In this document: in pieces, positions 911 through 58,154 of the stretch | Position numbering within the stretch: the first letter of the stretch is position 1 | Layout of the letters: each line of letters opens with the position of its first letter | Assembly (NCBI GenBank): GCA_900545925.1 | Contig: URAZ01000001.1 | Location: forward strand, 42,614 to 106,613 | Reading direction: 5' to 3' | DNA from: an uncultured Eubacteriales bacterium | Lineage (GTDB): Bacteria; Bacillota; Clostridia; Oscillospirales; Oscillospiraceae | Length of the DNA stretch: 64,000 bases | Notes under the pieces: generated by a model | Database searches by the model: none | Told to the model about the DNA's origin: nothing | What the model saw: the letters and a program-made list of their open reading frames with translations, nothing else | Position numbers and translations under genes: made by a program

Positions 911-2827
911 ATGAAAGATGGTTTTATCAAAGTTGCGGCAGGGACAGTCGATGTCGTGGTCGCGGATGTGCAGTACAATACGGAGCAAATCCTTGCGCGG
1001 ATGCGTGAGGCGGACGCGGCGGGCGTGAATCTGCTGACGCTGCCGGAACTTTGCCTGACGGGCTACACCTGCGGCGATCTGTTTTTCTCTGACTGCCTGC
1101 TCGGCGCGGTCGAACCTGCGCTGGCGCAGATTGTGGAGGCGTCGAAGGGCCTTTACCCAGTCACGGCAGTCGGGCTTCCGCTGCGCTTCGGCGGAAAACT
1201 CTATAACTGCGCAGCGGTCATCCACGCGGGACAGCTGCTCGGCGTCGTGCCGAAGACGCATCTGCCAAATTACGGTGAATTCTATGAACTGCGGCAGTTT
1301 TCCTCCGCGAAAACGCTGGAAGGAAAGGCCTATACAATCCCTCTCTGCGGCCAGAACGTGCCGTTCGGAACAGCCCTTTTGTTCTGCTGCTCCGGCATGC
1401 AGGATTATACCTTCGGCGTGGAACTCTGCGAGGATCTCTGGGTCCCCTGCCCGCCTTCTACCCGGCTCTGTGCAGGCGGTGCGGCGATCATTCTGAACCT
1501 CTCTGCCTCCGACGAGGTGATCGGCAAGGCGGATTACCGCCGGATGCTGGTCGGCGCAACGTCGGCGCGGCTGGCCTGCGGCTATATCTATTGCAGCGCG
1601 TCGCCGACAGAATCCACACAGGACATGGTTTTCTCACGGCACCATCTGATTGCGGAAAATGGGACGGTCCTGGCGGAAAACGAGCCGTTTGCGAGTGCTT
1701 CCCTGACAGTCTCCGAGATCGACGTGCAGCGGCTCATGCACGAGCGGCACCGCACGACGAGTTATGACTCTGTCCCCGGCCTTCAGGTTGTTCCCTTTGA
1801 CCAGCCGCTGCGCGAGACTGTGCTGACGCGGCACATCGCGCCCAACCCGTTCGTTCCGCCGTATGACGAGCAGCTGCGTGCCCGCGCGGAAGCGATTCTG
1901 CGCATCCAGTCGCAGGGACTCAAAAAGCGGCTGGAGCATACACACGCGAAAACGGTCGTGCTCGGTATTTCCGGCGGATTGGACAGCACACTGGCACTGC
2001 TGGTGTGCGTACGCGCATTTGATCTGGCCGGGCGCAGCCGGAAAGAAATTCTGTGCGTCACCATGCCGTGCTTCGGCACGACGAAGCGGACAAAATCCAA
2101 CGCGGTCAAACTTTGCGAAGAACTCGGCGTCAGCGTACAGGAGGTCAATATCACGGCCTCCGTCCGGCAGCATTTCGCGGACATCGGCCATGACGAAGCC
2201 GTGCATGACGTGACCTATGAAAACTGTCAGGCGCGGGAGCGCACGCAGGTCCTGATGGACATTGCGAATCAGTCCGGCGGGCTGGTCATCGGAACGGGCG
2301 ATCTTTCCGAGCTTGCGCTCGGCTGGGCGACGTATAACGGCGACCATATGTCCATGTATGCGGTCAACTGTTCGGTTCCCAAAACGCTGGTGCGGTATAT
2401 CGTACAGTACGAGGCCGGGAGCAGCGCGCCTGCGCTGCGGGACGTGCTGCTGGATATTCTCGATACGCCCGTTTCGCCGGAACTTCTGCCTGCGGATGAA
2501 AATGGGCAAATCGCGCAGAAGACAGAGGATCTCGTCGGCCCGTATGAACTGCATGACTTTTTCCTATATCACCTGCTGCGCTTCGGCTCCCGTCCGCGCA
2601 AGTTGTTTCGGATGGCGAAATACGCGTATGGCGGTAAGTATTCAGACGCAGTAATTCTGCATTGGCTGAAGATATTCTGCCGCCGGGTCTTCCAGCAGCA
2701 GTTCAAGCGCTCGTGCATCCCGGACGGGCCGAAGGTCGGCTCCGTGACGCTCAGCCCCAGAGGCGACTGGCGTATGCCGTCGGACGCGTCGGGCAGCTTA
2801 TGGCTCGCGGAGGCGGAAGCGCTCTGA
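911..2827 (+). CDS. nadE: glutamine-dependent NAD+ synthetase (N-terminal nitrilase/CN-hydrolase domain + NAD synthase domain)
   Basis: GISGGLDSTLALLV P-loop-like ATP-pyrophosphatase motif of NAD synthase. The N-terminal 280 aa resemble a CN hydrolase. ATG at 911 (MKDGFIKVAAG) is preceded by AGGAG. The ORF track start at 875 is probably too far upstream. Confidence 0.9.
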   Translation: MKDGFIKVAAGTVDVVVADVQYNTEQILARMREADAAGVNLLTLPELCLTGYTCGDLFFSDCLLGAVEPALAQIVEASKGLYPVTAVGLPLRFGGKLYNCAAVIHAGQLLGVVPKTHLPNYGEFYELRQFSSAKTLEGKAYTIPLCGQNVPFGTALLFCCSGMQDYTFGVELCEDLWVPCPPSTRLCAGGAAIILNLSASDEVIGKADYRRMLVGATSARLACGYIYCSASPTESTQDMVFSRHHLIAENGTVLAENEPFASASLTVSEIDVQRLMHERHRTTSYDSVPGLQVVPFDQPLRETVLTRHIAPNPFVPPYDEQLRARAEAILRIQSQGLKKRLEHTHAKTVVLGISGGLDSTLALLVCVRAFDLAGRSRKEILCVTMPCFGTTKRTKSNAVKLCEELGVSVQEVNITASVRQHFADIGHDEAVHDVTYENCQARERTQVLMDIANQSGGLVIGTGDLSELALGWATYNGDHMSMYAVNCSVPKTLVRYIVQYEAGSSAPALRDVLLDILDTPVSPELLPADENGQIAQKTEDLVGPYELHDFFLYHLLRFGSRPRKLFRMAKYAYGGKYSDAVILHWLKIFCRRVFQQQFKRSCIPDGPKVGSVTLSPRGDWRMPSDASGSLWLAEAEAL

Positions 2828-2852
2828 TTCCCCATTTTTCGCGTCCGCCCGG

Positions 2853-2881
2853 TTGACAAGCAGCGTCCAGCGTGCTATGAT
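2853..2881 (+). promoter_or_regulatory. sigma-70-like promoter of the aro operon (TTGACA-N17-TATGAT)
   Basis: TTGACA at 2853-2858, 17-nt spacer, TATGAT at 2876-2881. Confidence 0.45.
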
Positions 2882-2912
2882 TGTCACAGATTTTCATAAG
2901 GAGAGTCTTCTC

Positions 2913-2963
2913 ATGTTCACTTCTGTTTTCGCGTCCTATTATTACTTTACTGTCGCCAGATAG
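2913..2963 (+). CDS. aromatic-rich leader peptide MFTSVFASYYYFTVAR (16 aa), candidate attenuation leader for the aro operon
   Basis: RBS AAGGAGAG 7 nt upstream of ATG 2913. Of 16 codons, 3 are consecutive Tyr and 3 are Phe. Stop TAG at 2961. Lies between the promoter and a terminator hairpin, immediately upstream of aroF. Confidence 0.5.
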   Translation: MFTSVFASYYYFTVAR

Positions 2964-3004
2964 TAAGGTCAATTTGTGATGCGCAGAAGAGTTGGTAATT
3001 TGCA

Positions 3005-3036
3005 TGCGGCACAGAATTGACTGTGCCGCATTTTTT
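3005..3036 (+). terminator. intrinsic terminator / attenuator hairpin in the aro leader
   Basis: Perfect 10-bp stem TGCGGCACAG / CTGTGCCGCA, 6-nt loop, then TTTTTT. Sits 22 nt upstream of the aroF start codon. Confidence 0.55.
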
Positions 3037-3057
3037 ATTGTACTGGAGGTCAAAACC

Positions 3058-4062
3058 ATGATTGTCGTATTGAAGCACAACGTCCCGGACGAAAAGCGGA
3101 ATCAACTCATTACCTGGCTGCGGAACCAGCAAATCGATGTGCACCCCTCGCTCGGCGAGTATCAGACCGTTCTGGGGCTGGTTGGCGATACAAGCCGGAT
3201 TGATATGTCCCTTCTGGAAAGTCTGGATATCGTCGATTCCGTCAAGCGCGTTTCCGACCCGTTCAAATGCTGCAACCGTAAGTTCCACCCAGATGATACC
3301 GTGGTTTCGGTCGGGGATGCGAAATTCGGCGGCGGGCATTTTGCGATGATCGCCGGGCCGTGCTCGGTCGAATCGGAGGAGCAGATCGTATACGTTGCAA
3401 AGGCCGTCAAGGCTGCGGGCGCGCAGCTGCTGCGCGGCGGCGCGTTCAAGCCGCGCACGTCCCCGTATGACTTCCAGGGGCTGCATGGCGAGGGCATCCG
3501 CCTGCTTGAGATCGCCAAGCAGGAGACGGGGCTGCCCATCGTGACGGAGCTGATGAACATTAAGCATCTGCCGCTGTTTGAGAACGTCGACGTCATTCAG
3601 ATCGGCGCGCGCAACATGCAGAATTATGATCTTCTGAAGGAGATGGGCTCGGTCAAAAAGCCGATTCTGCTCAAGCGCGGGCTTGCCAACACACTCAAGG
3701 AGTTGCTGATGAGCGCGGAATATATCATGGCCAGCGGCAACGACAATGTCATTCTCTGTGAGCGCGGCATCCGCACGTTTGACGACTATACCAGAAACAC
3801 GCTTGATCTGGCAGCCGTCCCGATGCTGCATGAACTGTCGCATCTGCCGGTCATCGTTGACCCCAGCCATTCCACAGGCATCAACCGACTCGTGCCGCCC
3901 ATGACGCTGGCTGCTGCCGCCTGCGGGGCTGACGGCGTGATCGTCGAGGTGCACAACGACCCCATCCATGCGCTGTGCGACGGTGCGCAGTCTCTGACCT
4001 GTGAGCAGTTTGCCGAGGTTGCTCGCAAGGTGCGCGCGGTGCGCGAGGCGGTGGCAGAATGA
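3058..4062 (+). CDS. aroF: 3-deoxy-7-phosphoheptulonate (DAHP) synthase, type I-beta, with N-terminal regulatory (ferredoxin-like) extension
   Basis: KDO8PS/DAHPS I-beta core ([25 protein letters not shown]). About 70-aa N-terminal extension before the catalytic barrel. RBS GGAGGT. Stop overlaps the tyrA start (ATGA). Confidence 0.9.
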
Positions 4063-4892
4063 CGGTCGGAATTGTGGGTCTGGGGCTGATCGGAGGCTCG
4101 TTTGCAAAAGCCTATCACGCTGCCGGATGGATCGTCTATGGCTATGATACAGACGCAAGCATGCTTGCCTTTGCGCAGCTGGCAGACGCGGTGAACAAAC
4201 CGCTTACGATGGATACGATCGGCTCGTGCGACTTGGTACTCTTGTGCGTCCGGCCGCTCGCCGCAATCGACTATCTGCGCGAGGCTGCGCCGCATATCGG
4301 CAGGAAACCCATCGTGATCGACTGCTGCGGCACGAAGCGCGTGGTTTGCGCGGCAGCGTTCCCGCTGGCGGAACAGTACCGCTTCACCTATCTCGGCGGA
4401 CATCCAATGGCCGGTACGCAGTATTCCGGCTTCGGCCACGCGCGCGCAAATCTTTACCACAACGCACCGATGGTCATTGTCCCGCCGGCTTTTGATAACA
4501 TTGAACTGCTCTCCCGCGTGCAGGAGTTACTGCGACCGGCAGGCTTCGGCAGCTACTCGGTCACGACAGCTGAAAAGCATGACGAAATGATCGCTTTTAC
4601 CTCACAGATGGCGCATCTCGTCTCGAACGCATATATCAAAAGTCCGACGGCAAGGGCACACAAGGGCTTTTCTGCCGGAAGCTACAAGGATATGACCCGC
4701 GTGGCGTGGCTGAACGCGCCGATGTGGTCGGAACTGTTCCTGGAAAACCGCGACAATATGCTCCATGAACTGGACTGCCTGATGGACAGGCTGATGGAAT
4801 ACCGGACAGCGATTGCCGAAGACGACCCCGATGCGCTGACGCAGCTGTTGGAAGATGGAAAAAAGCGCAAGGAGGAGGTCGATGGACGATGA
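4059..4892 (+). CDS. tyrA: prephenate dehydrogenase
   Basis: N-terminal Rossmann motif GLGLIGGS. Family-level similarity to TyrA. Translationally coupled on both sides. Confidence 0.85.
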   Translation: MTVGIVGLGLIGGSFAKAYHAAGWIVYGYDTDASMLAFAQLADAVNKPLTMDTIGSCDLVLLCVRPLAAIDYLREAAPHIGRKPIVIDCCGTKRVVCAAAFPLAEQYRFTYLGGHPMAGTQYSGFGHARANLYHNAPMVIVPPAFDNIELLSRVQELLRPAGFGSYSVTTAEKHDEMIAFTSQMAHLVSNAYIKSPTARAHKGFSAGSYKDMTRVAWLNAPMWSELFLENRDNMLHELDCLMDRLMEYRTAIAEDDPDALTQLLEDGKKRKEEVDGR

Positions 4893-5947
4893 AGACAGTC
4901 TCTATCTCCGCCTCGCGGCAGTATGAGATTTTGATTGAACGCGGACTGCTGCGCCGCGCCGGCGAACTGGTTCGCAGCGTGACGAACGCGGGAACGGTCA
5001 TGCTCGTCTCGGACGATTCTGTATGGCCCTTGTATGGCGAAACAGTACAGAAAAGCCTCGCGGAATCCGGTTTTTCCGTATGCCGGTTCGTATTTCCGCA
5101 CGGAGAGAATTCCAAGTGCGCGAAAACGTATCTGGCGCTTCTGAATGCGCTGTGTGAAAACCGGCTGACAAGGGCAGACGCAGTCGTCGCGCTCGGCGGC
5201 GGCGTAGTAGGCGATCTGACAGGCTTTGCGGCCTCTACCTATCTGCGCGGGATCGGGTTTATCCAGATCCCGACGACGCTGCTGGCCATGGTCGATTCCT
5301 CCGTCGGCGGCAAAACGGCCATCGATCTGCCTGCCGGGAAAAATCTGGCCGGGACGTTTTACCAGCCGTGGCTCGTGCTCTGCGACCCGGACTGTCTGGA
5401 TTCCCTGCCGGACGAAATTTTCCACGATGGCTGCGCGGAGGTCATCAAATACGCGGTGCTTGGAAATGCACCGTTTTTCGAGGAATTGAACTGCACGCCG
5501 CCGCATGCGCAGCTGGAGCATATTATCGAAACGTGCGTGCGGATGAAGCGCGATATCGTCGCGCAGGATGAATTTGACCGCGGCCAGCGGCAGCTTCTGA
5601 ATCTCGGCCATACCTTCGGCCATGGGATCGAGGCCTGCAGCAGCTTTGCCGTCAGCCACGGCTCTGCCGTCGCCATCGGTATGGCGATGATCGTGCGGGC
5701 AGCGGTGCAGTTCGGCTTCTGCACGACCGAAACGCGGGATACGGTGCTGGACCTGCTGCGGCAGTACGGGCTTCCGACCGATTGTGCGTATCCGGCAGAG
5801 CAGATGCTCGGCGTAGTTTTACACGACAAAAAATCCTCCGGCGGATCGGTCAGCCTGATCGTTCCAACAGCCGTCGGACACTGTGAAATCCGAAAAACAC
5901 CGGCCGACGAAATTTCAAACTGGCTGCTGGCCGGAGGTGCACAATGA
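4889..5947 (+). CDS. aroB: 3-dehydroquinate synthase
   Basis: GGGVVGDLTGFAASTYLRGI and PTTLLAMVDSSVGGKTAI motifs typical of AroB. Confidence 0.9.
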   Translation: MKTVSISASRQYEILIERGLLRRAGELVRSVTNAGTVMLVSDDSVWPLYGETVQKSLAESGFSVCRFVFPHGENSKCAKTYLALLNALCENRLTRADAVVALGGGVVGDLTGFAASTYLRGIGFIQIPTTLLAMVDSSVGGKTAIDLPAGKNLAGTFYQPWLVLCDPDCLDSLPDEIFHDGCAEVIKYAVLGNAPFFEELNCTPPHAQLEHIIETCVRMKRDIVAQDEFDRGQRQLLNLGHTFGHGIEACSSFAVSHGSAVAIGMAMIVRAAVQFGFCTTETRDTVLDLLRQYGLPTDCAYPAEQMLGVVLHDKKSSGGSVSLIVPTAVGHCEIRKTPADEISNWLLAGGAQ

Positions 5948-7197
5948 CGCGGACGATACTGCCCGGCTTGCGCACAGGTGTGATTCGGATTCCCGCCTCC
6001 AAATCACAGGCGCACCGGATGCTGATCTGCGCAGCACTCTCTGCATCGCCGTCTCATTTGATTTTGGACGGCTTCAGCGCGGATATTGAAGCGACGATGC
6101 AGTGTCTGGAAGCGCTTGGCGCACGATGCGAAAAAATTTCGGACGGACTTCTTATTTCACCGGTCAGCGTTTGCCCAGCGCAGGCGCGGCTAGATGTAGG
6201 CGAAAGCGGATCGACACTGCGGTTTCTACTTCCAGTGCTTGGGGCACTTGGCATTCGGGCAGAAATTCAGATGCACGGGAGGCTCCCGGCACGTCCTCTG
6301 TCCCCGCTGTGGGAGGCTTTGGAGATGCACGGCATGCGGCTGCAGCAGGACGGGTCTGTCCTGCATACGGACGGGCAGTTGACCGCAGGAGACTATTCCC
6401 TGCCCGGCAATGTTTCCTCGCAGTTTATTTCCGGGCTTTTGTTTGCGCTGCCGCTTCTGAGCGGAAACAGCACGCTGACGGTCACGGGCGCGCTCCAATC
6501 GGCGCGGTACGTCGCCATGACGGAGCAGGCGCTTGCGGAAGCGGGAATTCTTATAAAAAAGGACGGGCCGGTCTGGCAGATCGGCGGTGAGCAGCGCTAT
6601 GCGGCGCCTTCTGTGCAGACGGTCGAGGGAGACTGGTCAAACGCGGCGTTTTTCCTGTGCATGGGCGCGCTGTCGGAGGCGGGCGTGACTGTAACGGGGC
6701 TGAATCCCGAATCGCTGCAGGCAGACCGGGCTATTACGGAAATTCTGACACGTTTCGGCGCAAAGTTAGCCATCTCTGAGCATGCCGTTATCGTGCGACG
6801 CGGAAATCTGCATGGAATCACGCTGGACGCAGGGCCGGTTCCGGATCTCATCCCAGTTGTCTCCTGTCTTGCCGCGCTTTGCAGCGGGGAAACGCAGGTT
6901 GAAAATGCAGCGCGGCTGCGGCTGAAAGAATCCGACCGTTTGCAAACGACGGCAGCGCTCCTTTCCGTGCTTGGCGGATGCGTACATGAATTGCCGGACG
7001 GTCTGGTTATTTTAGGCCGCGACCGCCTTTCCGGCGGAACGGCGGACGCTTGTGGCGACCACCGCATCGCCATGAGTGCGGCTATGGCCGCCTGCGGCTG
7101 CGAAGGCCTGGTTACGGTGTCTGGAAGCGAATGCGTCGCAAAATCCTATCCCGCATTCTGGGAGGACTTTGCTTCTTTGAAGGAGGATGCAGTATGA
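5944..7197 (+). CDS. aroA: 3-phosphoshikimate 1-carboxyvinyltransferase (EPSP synthase)
   Basis: EPSPS fold signatures (PASKSQAHR, GDHRIAMS). 417 aa. Confidence 0.9.
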   Translation: MTRTILPGLRTGVIRIPASKSQAHRMLICAALSASPSHLILDGFSADIEATMQCLEALGARCEKISDGLLISPVSVCPAQARLDVGESGSTLRFLLPVLGALGIRAEIQMHGRLPARPLSPLWEALEMHGMRLQQDGSVLHTDGQLTAGDYSLPGNVSSQFISGLLFALPLLSGNSTLTVTGALQSARYVAMTEQALAEAGILIKKDGPVWQIGGEQRYAAPSVQTVEGDWSNAAFFLCMGALSEAGVTVTGLNPESLQADRAITEILTRFGAKLAISEHAVIVRRGNLHGITLDAGPVPDLIPVVSCLAALCSGETQVENAARLRLKESDRLQTTAALLSVLGGCVHELPDGLVILGRDRLSGGTADACGDHRIAMSAAMAACGCEGLVTVSGSECVAKSYPAFWEDFASLKEDAV

Positions 7198-8273
7198 GCA
7201 GCGTGTATACCGGAAATCTGACCGTTTCCATCTTCGGGCAGTCCCACGCGCCCGCCATCGGCGTTACGATTGATGGACTCCCAGCTGGATTTCCCATCAA
7301 TCTGGATGAATTGCAGTTTTTTTTAAGCCGCCGTGCGCCCGGACAGAATGCGTGGTCAACGCCGCGCAGAGAGGTTGACGCCCCGGAAGTTTTATGCGGG
7401 CTGAAAAACGGAAAAACCTGCGGCGCGCCGCTCACGGCCATCATCCGCAACACCAACACACGCTCCGGCGATTACGAAAATCTAAAGGATGTTCCCCGCC
7501 CTGGCCATGCAGACTACACTGCGCAGGTCAAATTCGGCGGCGCACAGGACGCAAGCGGCGGCGGACATTTTTCCGGTCGGCTGACCGCGCCGATGTGCAT
7601 TGCCGGCGGTATTTGCATGCAGCTGCTGGAACACGAGGGTGTCCGCATCCGCGCGCGCATCTTATCCATTGGAACTGTCACCGACAGCGCACCGTTTGAC
7701 GCGCCGGTCGCGGGAAAGCCGTTTCCAGCCGTTTCTGACGGCGCAGCTACAACCATGCAGGAGGAAATTGCGCAGGCGAAGGCGGACGGAGATTCCATCG
7801 GCGGCGTGATTGAATGTGTGATAGACGGGCTTCCGGCAGGCATTGGCGAGCCGATGTTTGGTGGGCTGGAAAACCTGATTGCGCGTACTGTGTTCGCCAT
7901 TCCGGCGGTCAAGGGCGTGGAGTTCGGCGCAGGTTTTGCTGCCGCGCGGCTGCGCGGCAGCGAGAATAACGATCCGTTCCGCGTGCAAAATGGGCACATT
8001 GTCACGGAAACGAACAACTGTGGCGGTATTTTGGGCGGCATTTCGACCGGCATGCCGGTTGTGTTCCGTGCCGCATTCAAACCGACGCCGTCCATTTCCC
8101 GGACACAGGCCTCCGTCAGCCTTTCGCGGATGGAAAATGAAACGCTCGTCATCCATGGGCGACACGACCCATGTATCGTACCGCGGGCCGTCCCGTGCGT
8201 AGAGGCTGCGGCAGCGATTGCCGTGCTGGATGCGTGGATGGGCCGTAAAAAGGAGACAGGCTATGAATTCTAA
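7194..8273 (+). CDS. aroC: chorismate synthase
   Basis: MSSVYTGNLTVSIFGQSHAP...GGRSSARET-like core. ATG at 7194 after AAGGAGG. Overlaps the aroA stop. Confidence 0.9.
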   Translation: MSSVYTGNLTVSIFGQSHAPAIGVTIDGLPAGFPINLDELQFFLSRRAPGQNAWSTPRREVDAPEVLCGLKNGKTCGAPLTAIIRNTNTRSGDYENLKDVPRPGHADYTAQVKFGGAQDASGGGHFSGRLTAPMCIAGGICMQLLEHEGVRIRARILSIGTVTDSAPFDAPVAGKPFPAVSDGAATTMQEEIAQAKADGDSIGGVIECVIDGLPAGIGEPMFGGLENLIARTVFAIPAVKGVEFGAGFAAARLRGSENNDPFRVQNGHIVTETNNCGGILGGISTGMPVVFRAAFKPTPSISRTQASVSLSRMENETLVIHGRHDPCIVPRAVPCVEAAAAIAVLDAWMGRKKETGYEF

Positions 8274-9498
8274 GACGATGCGCTGCGGTCTGCTCGGCCG
8301 GACACTTGGTCACAGCTACTCTCCTGCCATTCACCGACAGCTTGCGGGATATTCCTACGACTTGTTTGAAACAGAGCCGGAGGCGCTCAGCGCATTTTTG
8401 CAGTCCGGATGCTTTGACGGACTGAACGTGACCATTCCGTATAAAAAAGACATAATCCCCTATTGTGCGGAACTCTCCGAAACAGCCCGTGCCATCGGGG
8501 CGGTCAACACCATTGTCCGCAGGACAGACGGGACACTCTGGGGCGACAACACCGACGCTTACGGCTTTTCCATGCTGGTACAATCCAGCGGCGCGGAGAT
8601 ACGCGGCAAAAAGGCGCTCATTTTCGGCAGCGGCGGCGCATCAGCGACCGCACAGTATGTCCTGCGGCAGATGGGCGCGCGGGAGGTCGTTGTTATTTCG
8701 CGTCACGGGACAAACAGTTACGAGAATCTCGACCGGCACGCGGATACGGAGATCTCCGTCAATACAACGCCGGTCGGCATGTATCCGAACACCGGCGTAT
8801 CGCCTGTTGATTTAAGCCGGTTTCCGAAGCTGGAAGCCGCGCTGGATGTGGTCTACAATCCTGCGCGGACGAAATTTCTGCTTGAGGCCGAGCGGCTCGG
8901 CCTCAAGCGGGCGAACGGACTTTTGATGCTCGTCGCACAGGCCAAGAAAAGCTGTGAGGATTTTCTGGGTGAACCGATTGCGGATGAACGTATCGGCGCA
9001 ATCACAAAAGCGCTGACCGCGCAGATGCAGAATGTGATTCTCATCGGCATGCCGGGCAGCGGCAAGACGACAATCGGCACGAGACTTGCTGCACAGCTGG
9101 GCCGCACATTTCTAGACGCAGACACCGTACTCGAGCAGAAGGCCGGGATCCCCATTCCAGAGATTTTCCGGCTTGAGGGCGAGGAAAGCTTCCGTCAGAG
9201 GGAGACGGCGGTGCTGACGGAACTGGGCAAGCACTCCGGGCTTGTGATTGCCACGGGCGGCGGGTGCGTGACAAGGCCGGAAAATTACCCGCTGCTGCAT
9301 CAGAACGGGACGATTTTCTGCCTGACGCGCGAATTGGATCGGCTTCCCTTGGACGGAAGACCTGTCTCGCAGGCGCTCGGCGCAGAAGAAATTTATCGGC
9401 GCAGGAAGCCTTTGTATGAAAAATTTGCAGATGCTATGATTAACAATGACCGCACGGTAGAGGATGCTGTGCATCAGATTCTGGAGGTGCTTGGATGA
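8263..9498 (+). CDS. aroE: bifunctional shikimate dehydrogenase / shikimate kinase (AroE-AroK fusion)
   Basis: The N-terminal 270 aa match shikimate 5-dehydrogenase (GHSYSPAIH, NVTIPYK, NTDAYGF). The C-terminal 160 aa match shikimate kinase (ILIGMPGSGKTTIG Walker A). RBS AGGAGA. Confidence 0.85.
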   Translation: MNSKTMRCGLLGRTLGHSYSPAIHRQLAGYSYDLFETEPEALSAFLQSGCFDGLNVTIPYKKDIIPYCAELSETARAIGAVNTIVRRTDGTLWGDNTDAYGFSMLVQSSGAEIRGKKALIFGSGGASATAQYVLRQMGAREVVVISRHGTNSYENLDRHADTEISVNTTPVGMYPNTGVSPVDLSRFPKLEAALDVVYNPARTKFLLEAERLGLKRANGLLMLVAQAKKSCEDFLGEPIADERIGAITKALTAQMQNVILIGMPGSGKTTIGTRLAAQLGRTFLDADTVLEQKAGIPIPEIFRLEGEESFRQRETAVLTELGKHSGLVIATGGGCVTRPENYPLLHQNGTIFCLTRELDRLPLDGRPVSQALGAEEIYRRRKPLYEKFADAMINNDRTVEDAVHQILEVLG

Positions 9499-9938
9499 AG
9501 CTGCTGATTTTGAACGGGCCAAATCTTAATCTGCTCGGCCTGCGGGAACCGGATATTTACGGCCGGCAGAATTACGCCGCGCTGGTGCAGTTCTGCGAAT
9601 CAGTCTGCCGTGAAGAAGACATCTCTTGTAAAGTCTTCCAGTCCAACCATGAGGGCACACTGGTGGACGAAATCCAAGCTGCTTACGGCGTGTTTGACGG
9701 TATCGTTATCAATCCGGCAGCCTATACGCACACAAGCGTTGCGATTTTAGACGCATTGAAAGCCGTTGCGCTTCCGGCAGTCGAGGTACACTTGTCCGAT
9801 GTGACGAAACGTGAGGACTTCCGGCAGATCTCCTATGCGCGGCTGGCTTGCGTAAAGACTTATATGGGACTTGGCTTCGAGGGCTACCGGCAGGCAATCC
9901 TGTTTTTGAAGGAATATTTGAATAAAAATACAGTTTAA
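9495..9938 (+). CDS. aroQ: type II 3-dehydroquinate dehydratase
   Basis: MKLLILNGPNLNLLGLREPDIYG and HLSDV motifs of type II DHQase. Confidence 0.9.
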   Translation: MKLLILNGPNLNLLGLREPDIYGRQNYAALVQFCESVCREEDISCKVFQSNHEGTLVDEIQAAYGVFDGIVINPAAYTHTSVAILDALKAVALPAVEVHLSDVTKREDFRQISYARLACVKTYMGLGFEGYRQAILFLKEYLNKNTV

Positions 9939-9956
9939 AGCAATGTCATTCATCTG

Positions 9957-9993
9957 GCGGTCAAAGCTGGCCGCCAGATTTTTTACACCTGTA
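9957..9993 (+). terminator. intrinsic terminator after the aro operon
   Basis: CTGGCGG...CCGCCAG stem followed by ATTTTTT. Confidence 0.5.
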
Positions 9994-10143
9994 TGCAGGA
10001 TTCCTCTTTTATATCCTGCACTATAATGAATCGATTCTTTCTTTTCCGTTCAATTCTTACTGGAATCTAAGTATTTATGAAGGATTTCTGTTGAAATTAC
10101 GAATTTTATAAAAAAAATATTTCTTGAAATGACAAAATACATC

Positions 10144-10172
10144 TTGAAAAATGCAAATTGATGTATTATACT
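10144..10172 (+). promoter_or_regulatory. candidate promoter of the TAXI-TRAP operon (TTGAAA-N17-TATACT) in an AT-rich intergenic region
   Basis: Hexamers read directly from the sequence. A second TTGAAA lies 20 nt upstream. Confidence 0.35.
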
Positions 10173-10206
10173 TTCACACAGCAAATCATTTCAGGAGGGA
10201 ATAGAT

Positions 10207-11250
10207 ATGAAAAAGATTCTTGCATTGCTTCTCGCAGCTGTCCTCGTTCTGGGCATGGCCGCGTGTGCCGCTTCTCCCGCGGCTCCCACGCAGACGACGT
10301 CCGATACGGCTTCTGACGCATCCGATACACCTGCTTCCAACGCTGAAACGCCTGCAGCATCCTCCGGTGCCAAGCTGCGCTTCGTCACCGGCGGCGAATC
10401 CGGTACCTATTATGCCTTTGGCTCTGTCATTGCCCAGCACGCGACAAATAACGCGGGCATTGATGTCGTCGGTTTGGTTGGCAACGGCTCTCAGTCGAAT
10501 ATTTTTGAACTTGAAGACGGCAACGCAGAACTGGCTTTCTGCCAGTCCGACGTCATGGCCTATGCTTACGCCGGCACAAACCTGTTTGCCGATACCGGCG
10601 CTGTCAGCTGCTTCTCCACAGTCGCAGCACTCTACACTGAGCAGGTGCAGATCGTCACGATCGATCCTGAGATCAAGACGGTCGCCGACCTCAAGGGCAA
10701 AAACGTCTCCATCGGCGCGGCCGGTTCCGGCGTGTATTTCAACGCCATGGACGTGCTCGGTGCTTACGGCCTGACGGAGTCTGACATCAACCCGACGTAT
10801 CAGTCCTTCGGCGACAGTGCAGATTCTCTGAAAAACGGCCAGATCGATGCGGCCTTCATCGTTGCAGGCGCTCCGACAACGGCAATCACCGATCTTGCAA
10901 CGACCAAGGATGTCTATCTCGTTTCTCTGGACGACGAGCACGTTGACCAGCTACTTGCCTCTTCCCCGTATTACACTAAGGTCACGATTGGCAAGGATGT
11001 CTACGGTCTTGACACTGACACCATCACCGTCGCCGTCAGCGCAGTCGTTCTCGCCCGCAACGACGTTTCCGAGGATGCAATCTACAAGCTGGTCGCCGAT
11101 ATCTTCGATAACGCCGCCAGCCTCACCGACACCCACGCCAAGTACGCAGAGGTCAGCACCGAATTTGGCGCTTCCGTCACTTCCGTCCCCTATCATCCGG
11201 GCGCTGCCAAGTACTTCGCCGAGAAGGGCTTTGACGTTCCCACCAAGTAA
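10207..11250 (+). CDS. TRAP transporter solute receptor, TAXI family (lipoprotein)
   Basis: Signal peptide plus lipobox (LGMAAC). GGESGTYYAFGSVIA motif typical of TAXI receptors. RBS GGAGGG. Confidence 0.85.
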   Translation: MKKILALLLAAVLVLGMAACAASPAAPTQTTSDTASDASDTPASNAETPAASSGAKLRFVTGGESGTYYAFGSVIAQHATNNAGIDVVGLVGNGSQSNIFELEDGNAELAFCQSDVMAYAYAGTNLFADTGAVSCFSTVAALYTEQVQIVTIDPEIKTVADLKGKNVSIGAAGSGVYFNAMDVLGAYGLTESDINPTYQSFGDSADSLKNGQIDAAFIVAGAPTTAITDLATTKDVYLVSLDDEHVDQLLASSPYYTKVTIGKDVYGLDTDTITVAVSAVVLARNDVSEDAIYKLVADIFDNAASLTDTHAKYAEVSTEFGASVTSVPYHPGAAKYFAEKGFDVPTK

Positions 11251-18851: not shown

Positions 18852-19214
18852 CCGCGACCGGGTCGGACAGTCGCGGGCGCAGCGCCGAAAGGCCGCGCAT
18901 GAGGAAAGTCCGGGCTCCGCAGGGCAAGGATAACGGGTAACGCCCGCCCAGAGCGATCTGAGGAAAAGTGCAACAGAAATAAACCGCCGGAGGCAGTGTA
19001 AGCTGTCTCCAGCAAGGGTGGAAAGGTGCGGTAAGAGCGCACCCAATGGCGTGCGAAAGCGTCCATTGCTGTAAACTCTATCCGGAGCAACACCGCAGAG
19101 GAAGCAAGGCTTGCCCGGCTGCTTCCGAGAAGGTGGCTGGAGCGCACCGGCAACGGTGCGCCTAGATAGATGACTGTCGATGACAGAACCCGGCTTATAG
19201 ACCCGATCGTAAAA
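18852..19214 (+). ncRNA. rnpB: RNase P RNA (bacterial)
   Basis: Universally conserved GAGGAAAGUCCGGGCUCC (P4 5' strand) at 18909-18926 and ACAGAACCCGGCUUA (P4 3' strand) near 19182-19196. Terminal helix pairs CGACCGGGUCGG with AGACCCGAUCG. Confidence 0.85.
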
Positions 19215-46644: not shown

Positions 46645-46736
46645 TGGCGGAGTGGGAGGGATTCGAACCCTCGGACGGCTTTTGACCGTCACACGATTTC
46701 CAGTCGTGCTCGTTATGACCGCTTCGATACCACTCC
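46645..46736 (-). tRNA. tRNA-Ser (anticodon GGA)
   Basis: Minus-strand cloverleaf: acceptor GGAGTGG/CCACTCC, anticodon stem CACGA/TCGTG with loop CUGGAAA, long variable arm, T-arm GAGGGTTCGAATCCCTC, encoded CCA. Confidence 0.85.
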
Positions 46737-58080: not shown

Positions 58081-58154
58081 AGGGGATTTGTGTAACGGTA
58101 GCACACCGGACTCTGACTCCGTTTGCGGGGGTTCGAATCCCTCATCCCCTGCCA
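58081..58154 (+). tRNA. tRNA-Gln (anticodon CTG)
   Basis: Acceptor AGGGGAT/ATCCCCT. Anticodon arm CCGGA-CUCUGAC-UCCGU, compare B. subtilis tRNA-Gln ACGGA-CUUUGAC-UCCGU. T-arm GGGGGTTCGAATCCCTC. Encoded CCA. Confidence 0.75.

Follow-up and report, generated by a model that had tools for sequence, protein, structure and literature searches.

A probable leader-peptide attenuator in front of the aroF-tyrA operon of an Oscillospiraceae bacterium and its relatives among the Clostridia

A 64-kb stretch of DNA from an uncultured Eubacteriales bacterium of the Clostridia (Oscillospiraceae lineage; contig URAZ01000001.1), referred to here as the window, carries an operon for aromatic amino acid synthesis whose first gene, aroF, is preceded by a leader of about 150 nt. 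This leader, situated in the intergenic region between nadE and aroF, is the subject of the present work. The operon (3058-9938, on the + strand like all features of the locus) is defined by NCBIfam equivalog matches in open reading frames (ORFs) that overlap or abut: aroF (3058-4062), tyrA (4059-4892), aroB (4889-5947), aroA (5944-7197), aroC (inside an ORF at 7050-8273), an aroE-aroK fusion (8218-9498) and aroQ (9495-9938). A 12-bp stem with a T-run at 9952-9979 forms the terminator at its end. Upstream of aroF lies a sigma-70-type promoter (2853-2881) with a -35 element TTGACA at 2853-2858, a 17-nt spacer and an extended -10 element TG-TATGAT at 2876-2881; it matches the consensus at 11 of 12 positions and is the top-ranked promoter-like site in a consensus scan of 2000-11000. 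Transcription is predicted to start near 2888. A Shine-Dalgarno sequence (SD) AAGGAGAG at 2898-2905, with 9 nt from GGAG to the ATG, precedes a 16-codon leader ORF (2913-2966 including stops) that begins with the ATG at 2913, encodes the peptide MFTSVFASYYYFTVAR and ends in two tandem in-frame stops, TAG (2961-2963) and TAA (2964-2966). Its three Tyr codons occupy 2937-2945 and its three Phe codons start at 2916, 2928 and 2946, so that a run TAT TAT TAC TTT (Tyr-Tyr-Tyr-Phe, 2937-2948) is formed, the proposed site of ribosome stalling. The leader closes with an intrinsic terminator, the candidate attenuator (3004-3036), consisting of an 11-bp stem (3004-3014/3021-3031) with 7 G-C pairs, the loop AAUUGA (3015-3020) and a U-run to 3036, with an energy of -19.4 kcal/mol. 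The ribosome-binding site of aroF, GGAGG, is at 3045-3049. The leader RNA as a whole folds with -55.5 kcal/mol, compared with -33.9 +/- 3.4 for shuffled sequences (z = -6.4). An earlier note on this DNA had proposed the promoter (TTGACA-N17-TATGAT), the 16-codon Tyr/Phe-rich ORF with a good ribosome-binding site at 2913-2963, the hairpin with its U-tract and the operon aroF-tyrA-aroBACEKQ, and had compared the layout with the attenuators of pheL and trpL. The promoter, the ORF and the operon content are borne out, aroE and aroK being one fusion gene. The hairpin is present too, its stem having 11 and not 10 bp, and the spacing of 22 nt given for the terminator and aroF was close: the gene starts at 3058 and not at 3059, 21 nt past the end of the T-run.

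Is this arrangement peculiar to one genome? A search with AroF gave 80 loci from species-level genomes, mostly of Oscillospiraceae or Ruminococcaceae-type Clostridia; two cultured isolates that carry the leader, Hominicoprocola fusiformis CLA-AA-H269 (L004) and Dysosmobacter segnis BX15 (L030), are among them. An alignment spanning the full leader was possible for 66 loci (MAFFT alignment A1). A covariance model derived from it, R1, which thus rests on aroF leaders only, adds three more (L079, L040 and L016) and places the leader before aroF in 69 of the 78 loci with any upstream sequence. The conservation of the Tyr/Phe-rich ORF and of the hairpin in orthologous loci, a point on which the earlier note had asked the comparison to decide, thus extends to the whole arrangement. 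In 65 of the 66 aligned loci the leader ATG has a promoter-like site ahead of it, mostly 28-45 nt upstream, with a perfect TTGACA in 49. A pattern scan recovered the leader scaffold on more than 100 metagenome contigs (at least 120 stretches). Within the 64-kb window, a motif search and R1 found no second copy of the leader. Three loci with a Clostridia-type aroF region and leader carry non-Firmicutes names of metagenome-assembled genomes (L008 and L046, titled Thermoguttaceae, and L026, Alloprevotella); these names probably reflect mistakes of binning or naming in the source assemblies. Two aroF loci without the family element, L047 (about 2016-2280) and L053 (about 2746-3000), have in common a different small upstream ORF with many aromatic codons and the C-terminal residues W-R-W-R-K-F, and no clear terminator was seen; this could be an unrelated aromatic leader. 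Leaders of the aroF type in which one Tyr codon has become CAC (His) occur at L119 (7699-7861), L164 (2959-3121, - strand) and L130 (8271-8382). No aroF follows them within 1.6 kb, the terminator too is missing from L130, and they may be relics of rearrangements.

The next question is whether the short ORF is translated. With the conserved TAC-TTT codons as an anchor, ATGs that have an SD and lie no more than 100 nt upstream were counted across the 66 loci: 64 are in the Tyr/Phe frame, as against 2 in the +1 and 2 in the +2 frame, and an open, in-frame SD and ATG reaches the aromatic run in 63 of the 66. The 64 distinct leader peptides are 16-31 residues long and contain 19.6% Tyr, 17.1% Phe and 0.4% Trp (37% aromatic overall), with runs of 3-8 consecutive aromatic codons; to our knowledge, Tyr-rich leader peptides are rare. 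In L032, L035 and L048 Trp codons are part of the run. The two synonymous Tyr codons are used equally (TAT 115, TAC 110), and the length of the aromatic run varies as 7, 10, 13, 16, 19 or 22 nt, that is, only by steps of three. The stops fall at three conserved sites, TAG just 5' of GUAAGG (30 leaders), TAA within GUAAGG (21) and UGA in UUUGUGA (7), all of them directly before or within the RNA segment called region 2 below. Tandem UAG UAA stops are found in the window and in 30 related leaders; the UAA of the pair belongs to the conserved GUAAGG stem and is the sole stop in 21 other leaders. Judged by this comparison of sequences, the leader ORF is real and conserved, together with its frame, SD and ATG.

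How could such a leader choose between termination and readthrough? Its RNA can form three mutually exclusive helices. The first is a protective hairpin (2920-2989, -26.4 kcal/mol) between region 1, its 5' strand (2920-2954), and region 2, its 3' strand (2959-2989). The lower stem joins 2920-2925 and 2930-2935 to 2978-2989 (as 2978-2983 and 2984-2989), and the upper stem joins 2944-2954 to 2959-2969. Between the two stems lies an internal loop with the Tyr codons on its 5' side and a conserved UAAUUUGUG-type sequence on its 3' side. Region 2 includes the antiterminator strand GUCAAUUUGUG (2968-2978), which in the second helix pairs with region 3 (3010-3021) through 11 bp with one bulged A; the minimum free energy (MFE) of 2964-3021 is -15.7 kcal/mol. 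Region 3 is made up of the distal 5' arm of the terminator, its loop and the first base of its 3' arm, and the terminator itself is the third helix. The pairing that the earlier note had expected between the end of the leader ORF (about 2945-2975) and the 5' arm of the terminator therefore exists, covaries and excludes the terminator, with its strands corrected to 2968-2978 and 3010-3021; the 5' strand lies beyond the ORF, not at its end as had been thought, and consists of the 11 nt just 3' of the stops.

In A1 the lower and upper stems of the protective hairpin are paired in 77% and 92.5% of cases, with changes on both sides in 9 of 14 pairs, and the terminator is paired in 90.4%, with compensatory changes in 8 of 12 pairs. 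The lower stem is probably stronger than its 77%, because A1 splits it unevenly where the length of the Tyr run changes (columns 45-59); six well-aligned pairs of this stem were scored. Taken together, hairpin and terminator are 88% paired with both-side changes in 17 of 26 pairs, a score reached by none of 500 shuffles, and controls in which the strands are slid drop to 35-50% paired. The antiterminator is paired in 90.8%, with 7 of its 12 pairs compensatory and a covariation score again reached by 0 of 500 shuffles; one of its pairs is seen as AU (10), CG (10), GC (9), GU (8), UA (6) and UG (4). A one-base bulge shifts the register of the antiterminator between clades, and a comparison free of the alignment was therefore added: cognate duplexes of region 2 and region 3 have a mean of -13.4 kcal/mol and non-cognate ones -9.7, with 0 of 2000 permutations as low. 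The terminator loop is itself conserved, because it pairs with region 2 in the antiterminator. Many leaders carry an extra hairpin in the linker of 30-70 nt between region 2 and the terminator.

Could the hairpin simply be a terminator, constitutive or partial, that serves to insulate aroF from nadE, next to a short ORF that arose by chance? Its place in the intergenic region would suit such a role, as would the finding that nadE has no separate terminator at 2827-2853. However, the strong promoter between nadE and the hairpin is as widely conserved as described above, the leader accompanies aroF even in loci whose aligned flanks have no conserved upstream sequence in common, and the ORF, the antiterminator and the protective hairpin are conserved far beyond chance. 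The insulator is already contradicted by these comparative data and deserves next to no credence.

If the leader is read by ribosomes, what do the codons tell about the signal? An answer comes from the genes that follow it. Among the metagenome stretches listed from the pattern scan, 82 have aroF downstream and 25 have pheA instead, encoding either a protein of 381-385 amino acids with chorismate mutase, prephenate dehydratase (PDT) and ACT domains (CM_2+PDT+ACT) or a PDT-only protein. None of the pheA leaders was in the training set of R1, yet they score 90-100 bits with it where a CM_2+PDT+ACT gene follows and 51-62 bits where the gene is PDT-only. The peptides of these leaders, such as MYVSILFAFLFTFTGLQ and MNRAFFTTSVFFFFAFTSDRCKGDL, contain on average 4.9 Phe and 0.6 Tyr, compared with 2.9 Phe and 3.7 Tyr in the aroF leaders (Fisher p = 1e-7), and the same shift to Phe is seen in two independent pheA lineages. 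Ribosome-mediated sensing predicts just this, an unchanging scaffold whose codons match the branch under control; an RNA that binds a ligand or a protein would not. The Phe-only leader with the peptide MYVSILFAFLFTFTGLQ stands before pheA in L090 (9773-9919, - strand), L108, L134 and some 20 further metagenome loci. The divergent branch of 51-62 bits, before PDT-only genes, is found in L091 (3468-3632), L158 (2756-2915, - strand) and L177 (9927-10093, - strand); these leaders are very rich in Phe and end in ...FTSDRCKG(D/N)L, with a UGA stop within region 2. In L150 (5242-5384 and downstream) a gene for an IS200/IS605-like transposase interrupts a pheA-type leader within its terminator, and in L172 one copy of the leader precedes aroB-aroA. 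A Tyr-rich member of the family, MNRMHNSYYYAYFYFTGSFSKGNL, lies in L122 (1142-1291, - strand) before a lipoprotein of the ABC_sub_bind family (PF04392), which may belong to a system for the uptake of aromatic amino acids that is controlled in the same way.

The codon shift also bears on the proposal that the conserved RNA is a riboswitch or an attenuator binding a protein or tRNA (of the T-box or TRAP type), the Tyr/Phe ORF being a by-product of an A/U-rich internal loop. In its favour are the high conservation of nucleotides around the Tyr codons and in region 2, UAUUAUUACUUUAC and GUAAGGnUAAUUUGUG, and the place of the Tyr codons in an internal loop between covarying stems, as is often the case in ligand pockets. 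Yet the loop turns from a Tyr run into a Phe run before pheA while the scaffold is unchanged, its indels come by threes, TAT and TAC occur in it with equal frequency, and the frame, SD and ATG are conserved with the bias given above; the conservation of region 2 is already accounted for by its pairing with the terminator. Nor do the known classes fit. A scan of the window with Rfam 15 (cmscan, gathering thresholds) returned RNase P and two tRNAs only, with no leader family or T-box, and a permissive scan of 2780-3120 returned only L20_leader, at 23 bits against a gathering threshold of 58.7 and driven by the terminator. The Rfam leader families (Trp_leader, Phe_leader, His_leader, the leu-phe leader and others) were rejected for want of a covariance-model match. 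The T-box (RF00230), defined by its conserved sequence, specifier loop and stem I architecture, was likewise rejected, with no match at gathering or permissive thresholds and a leader of such short length, and no T-box was found in the aroF loci without the family element either. A TRAP-type leader would have 9-11 (G/U)AG triplets spaced 2-3 nt apart; 2888-3057 holds five, the longest properly spaced chain being one, so this class was rejected as well. A direct-binding RNA is, on this balance, extremely unlikely.

Could the ribosome instead report on translation in general? A ribosome-dependent attenuator that responds to antibiotics or a global slowdown, like the ermC, bmrCD and vmlR leaders, has in its favour that any stall on the 5' strand would release region 2, and that several of the ribosome-mediated attenuators tested in Firmicutes do sense antibiotics (PMC4191407, PMC9226507, PMC6851288). 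The genes under control here are those of aromatic biosynthesis, however, more than a third of the leader residues are aromatic and arranged in runs, and the codons track the branch, Tyr and Phe for aroF-tyrA and Phe only for pheA. A general stress sensor seems very unlikely to us.

The effect of the ribosome on the fold was modelled in the 66 aligned leaders by MFE folding with a 30-nt footprint masked either at the aromatic run or at the stop codon. Free full-length RNA forms the terminator in 65 leaders and the antiterminator in none. If the aromatic run is masked and the RNA is cut off short of the terminator's 3' arm, 65 of 66 leaders adopt the antiterminator; masking of the stop codon instead leaves the antiterminator in 2 and gives the terminator in 65. 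In this scheme, transcription would begin near 2888 and a ribosome would translate the 16-codon leader. When Tyr and Phe are abundant, it would reach the stops at 2961-2966 and mask about 12 nt beyond them, which is most of the antiterminator strand of region 2 (2968-2978); the terminator (3004-3031 and the U-run) would then fold and RNA polymerase would halt before aroF. If either amino acid runs short, the ribosome would stall on UAU-UAU-UAC-UUU (2937-2948) and both stems of the protective hairpin (2920-2954/2959-2989) would stay open. The freed region 2 would pair with 3010-3021 as soon as this is transcribed, the terminator would be blocked because its distal 5' arm and loop are occupied, and the operon would be transcribed. 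In an RNA that is not translated, the protective hairpin would hold region 2 between its two stems and termination should prevail. The leader is thus very probably a ribosome-mediated leader-peptide transcription attenuator that ties transcription of aroF-tyrA-aroB-aroA-aroC-aroEK-aroQ to the supply of charged tRNA-Tyr and tRNA-Phe. The pheL/trpL-style layout that the earlier note had seen is supported by the conserved ORF, the covarying terminator and antiterminator, the dependence on the ribosome in silico and the match between codons and genes; termination at about 3036, the response to Tyr and Phe supply and the synchrony of polymerase and ribosome are what we infer from it.

Several observations weigh against this reading. 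With a stalled ribosome on full-length RNA, 50 of the 66 leaders still keep the terminator and 16 form the antiterminator, and in the window the terminator beats the antiterminator at equilibrium (-19.4 against -15.7 kcal/mol) even with the ribosome masked. A purely thermodynamic switch was rejected on these grounds. Because the terminator wins at equilibrium, the switch must, like that of the E. coli trp leader, be kinetic and co-transcriptional; the ribosome then has to be within about 60-90 nt of RNA polymerase. Coupling of the two is, reportedly, absent in B. subtilis, a finding said to be that of Johnson and colleagues in 2020. Untranslated, truncated RNA has the antiterminator in its MFE structure in 33 of 66 leaders, so termination without translation is possibly leaky. 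The conserved Phe-Ala and Tyr-Phe-Thr of the peptides are encoded where the 5' strands of two RNA stems lie, and these residues may be constrained by the RNA and not by the peptide. The sequences are, finally, related by descent, so the shuffle and Fisher statistics given above overstate their independence.

How does the leader compare with known attenuators? Like E. coli trpL and pheL, it has a promoter, an SD and a short ORF in which cognate codons form a run, followed by a 1:2 hairpin, a 2:3 antiterminator and a 3:4 terminator with a U-run before biosynthetic genes. The position of the stop codon likewise makes a terminating ribosome cover region 2; the terminator is the more stable of the two rival helices, so the choice is kinetic; and about 90-100 nt separate the regulatory codons from the end of the terminator. 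The Phe-only version before pheA can be regarded as a functional analogue of E. coli pheL. In contrast to trpL and pheL, which are proteobacterial, the present leader belongs to a lineage of the Clostridia (Oscillospiraceae), has no similarity in sequence or covariance model to the corresponding Rfam leader families, would sense mainly Tyr and Phe, and stands before the whole common pathway and tyrA in one operon. Its structure differs as well: the core of region 2 lies in an internal loop between two stems, with no continuous 1:2 helix, and region 2 pairs with the terminator loop in addition to the 5' arm. A further parallel is the aroR leader before aroF of Corynebacterium glutamicum, which has Phe-Tyr-Phe codons and is reported to respond to Phe and not to Tyr (Neshat et al. 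2014, cited after PMC11802643). According to this source, it too is an aromatic-codon leader peptide before a DAHP-synthase operon that acts by ribosome-mediated attenuation; it is set apart as an actinobacterial leader with only three aromatic codons, the present run having 3-8 codons of which Tyr is the commonest.

The earlier note had considered a leader-peptide attenuator of such an operon unusual for a Clostridia-type genome. In the searchable literature, most subscription journals lying outside that search, no description was found of the present family or of any Tyr/Phe leader before clostridial aro or pheA genes. In Firmicutes, leader-peptide attenuators as such are less exotic than the note implied: predictions of His leaders exist for the Bacillus cereus group, relatives of C. 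difficile and Erysipelotrichales (PMC2965389, PMC9413887), and the Leu-rich attenuator peptide of ilv-leu in S. aureus has been tested experimentally (PMC5794164). The present leader shares with them a short ORF of cognate codons and alternative terminator and antiterminator hairpins in place of the usual T-box, and differs in amino acids, operons and RNA sequence. One source describes T-boxes as the RNA-level regulators of tyrosine genes (PMC1262725). Tyr- and Phe-specific T-box leaders resemble the element studied here in lying 5' of aro, tyr and phe genes, in having terminator versus antiterminator as output and in using tRNA charging as the signal. They bind uncharged tRNA directly, though, and are 200-300 nt long with a conserved T-box sequence and a specifier loop; the present leader is shorter, lacks a T-box match and would read tRNA charging through the translating ribosome.

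What is the wider reach of the element? Sequence comparison points to a conserved attenuator family that is present in Oscillospiraceae-type Clostridia, has been missed by gene callers and Rfam, and is annotatable. We lean, by a modest degree, towards a broader view, namely that Oscillospiraceae-type gut Clostridia widely carry a family of programmable leader-peptide attenuators, so far undescribed, in which one scaffold has been re-coded: with Tyr and Phe for aroF-tyrA, with Phe only for pheA, with Trp added in some lineages and with a Tyr-rich run for the binding protein of an ABC transporter. On that view the aroF leader may be the first dedicated tyrosine-sensing ribosomal attenuator, and the leading ribosome would stay close to RNA polymerase in these Firmicutes, unlike the uncoupled picture of B. 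subtilis. If true, it would show how abundant gut anaerobes (Oscillospiraceae, Ruminococcaceae and relatives) control the synthesis of tyrosine and phenylalanine, which are precursors of many host-active aromatic metabolites. It would also fill a gap in annotation, a 150-nt regulatory element with a small ORF that has been overlooked, and provide a test case for the coupling of transcription and translation in Clostridia. The natural series of attenuators re-coded on one scaffold would be useful for studying the evolution of specificity and for the design of amino-acid sensors. The mechanism itself is of the textbook trpL/pheL type; the family, with its unusual specificity for Tyr and its clear re-coding, is apparently undescribed.

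Some other features of the window may be recorded. The binding protein of a TAXI-family TRAP transporter is encoded directly downstream of the aro operon (10207-11250), with overlapping promoter-like sites clustered upstream of its gene at 10091-10172. The RNase P RNA seen in the Rfam scan is of class A (18855-19213, + strand, 265.6 bits), and the two tRNA genes are at 46648-46736 (- strand) and 58081-58151 (+ strand).

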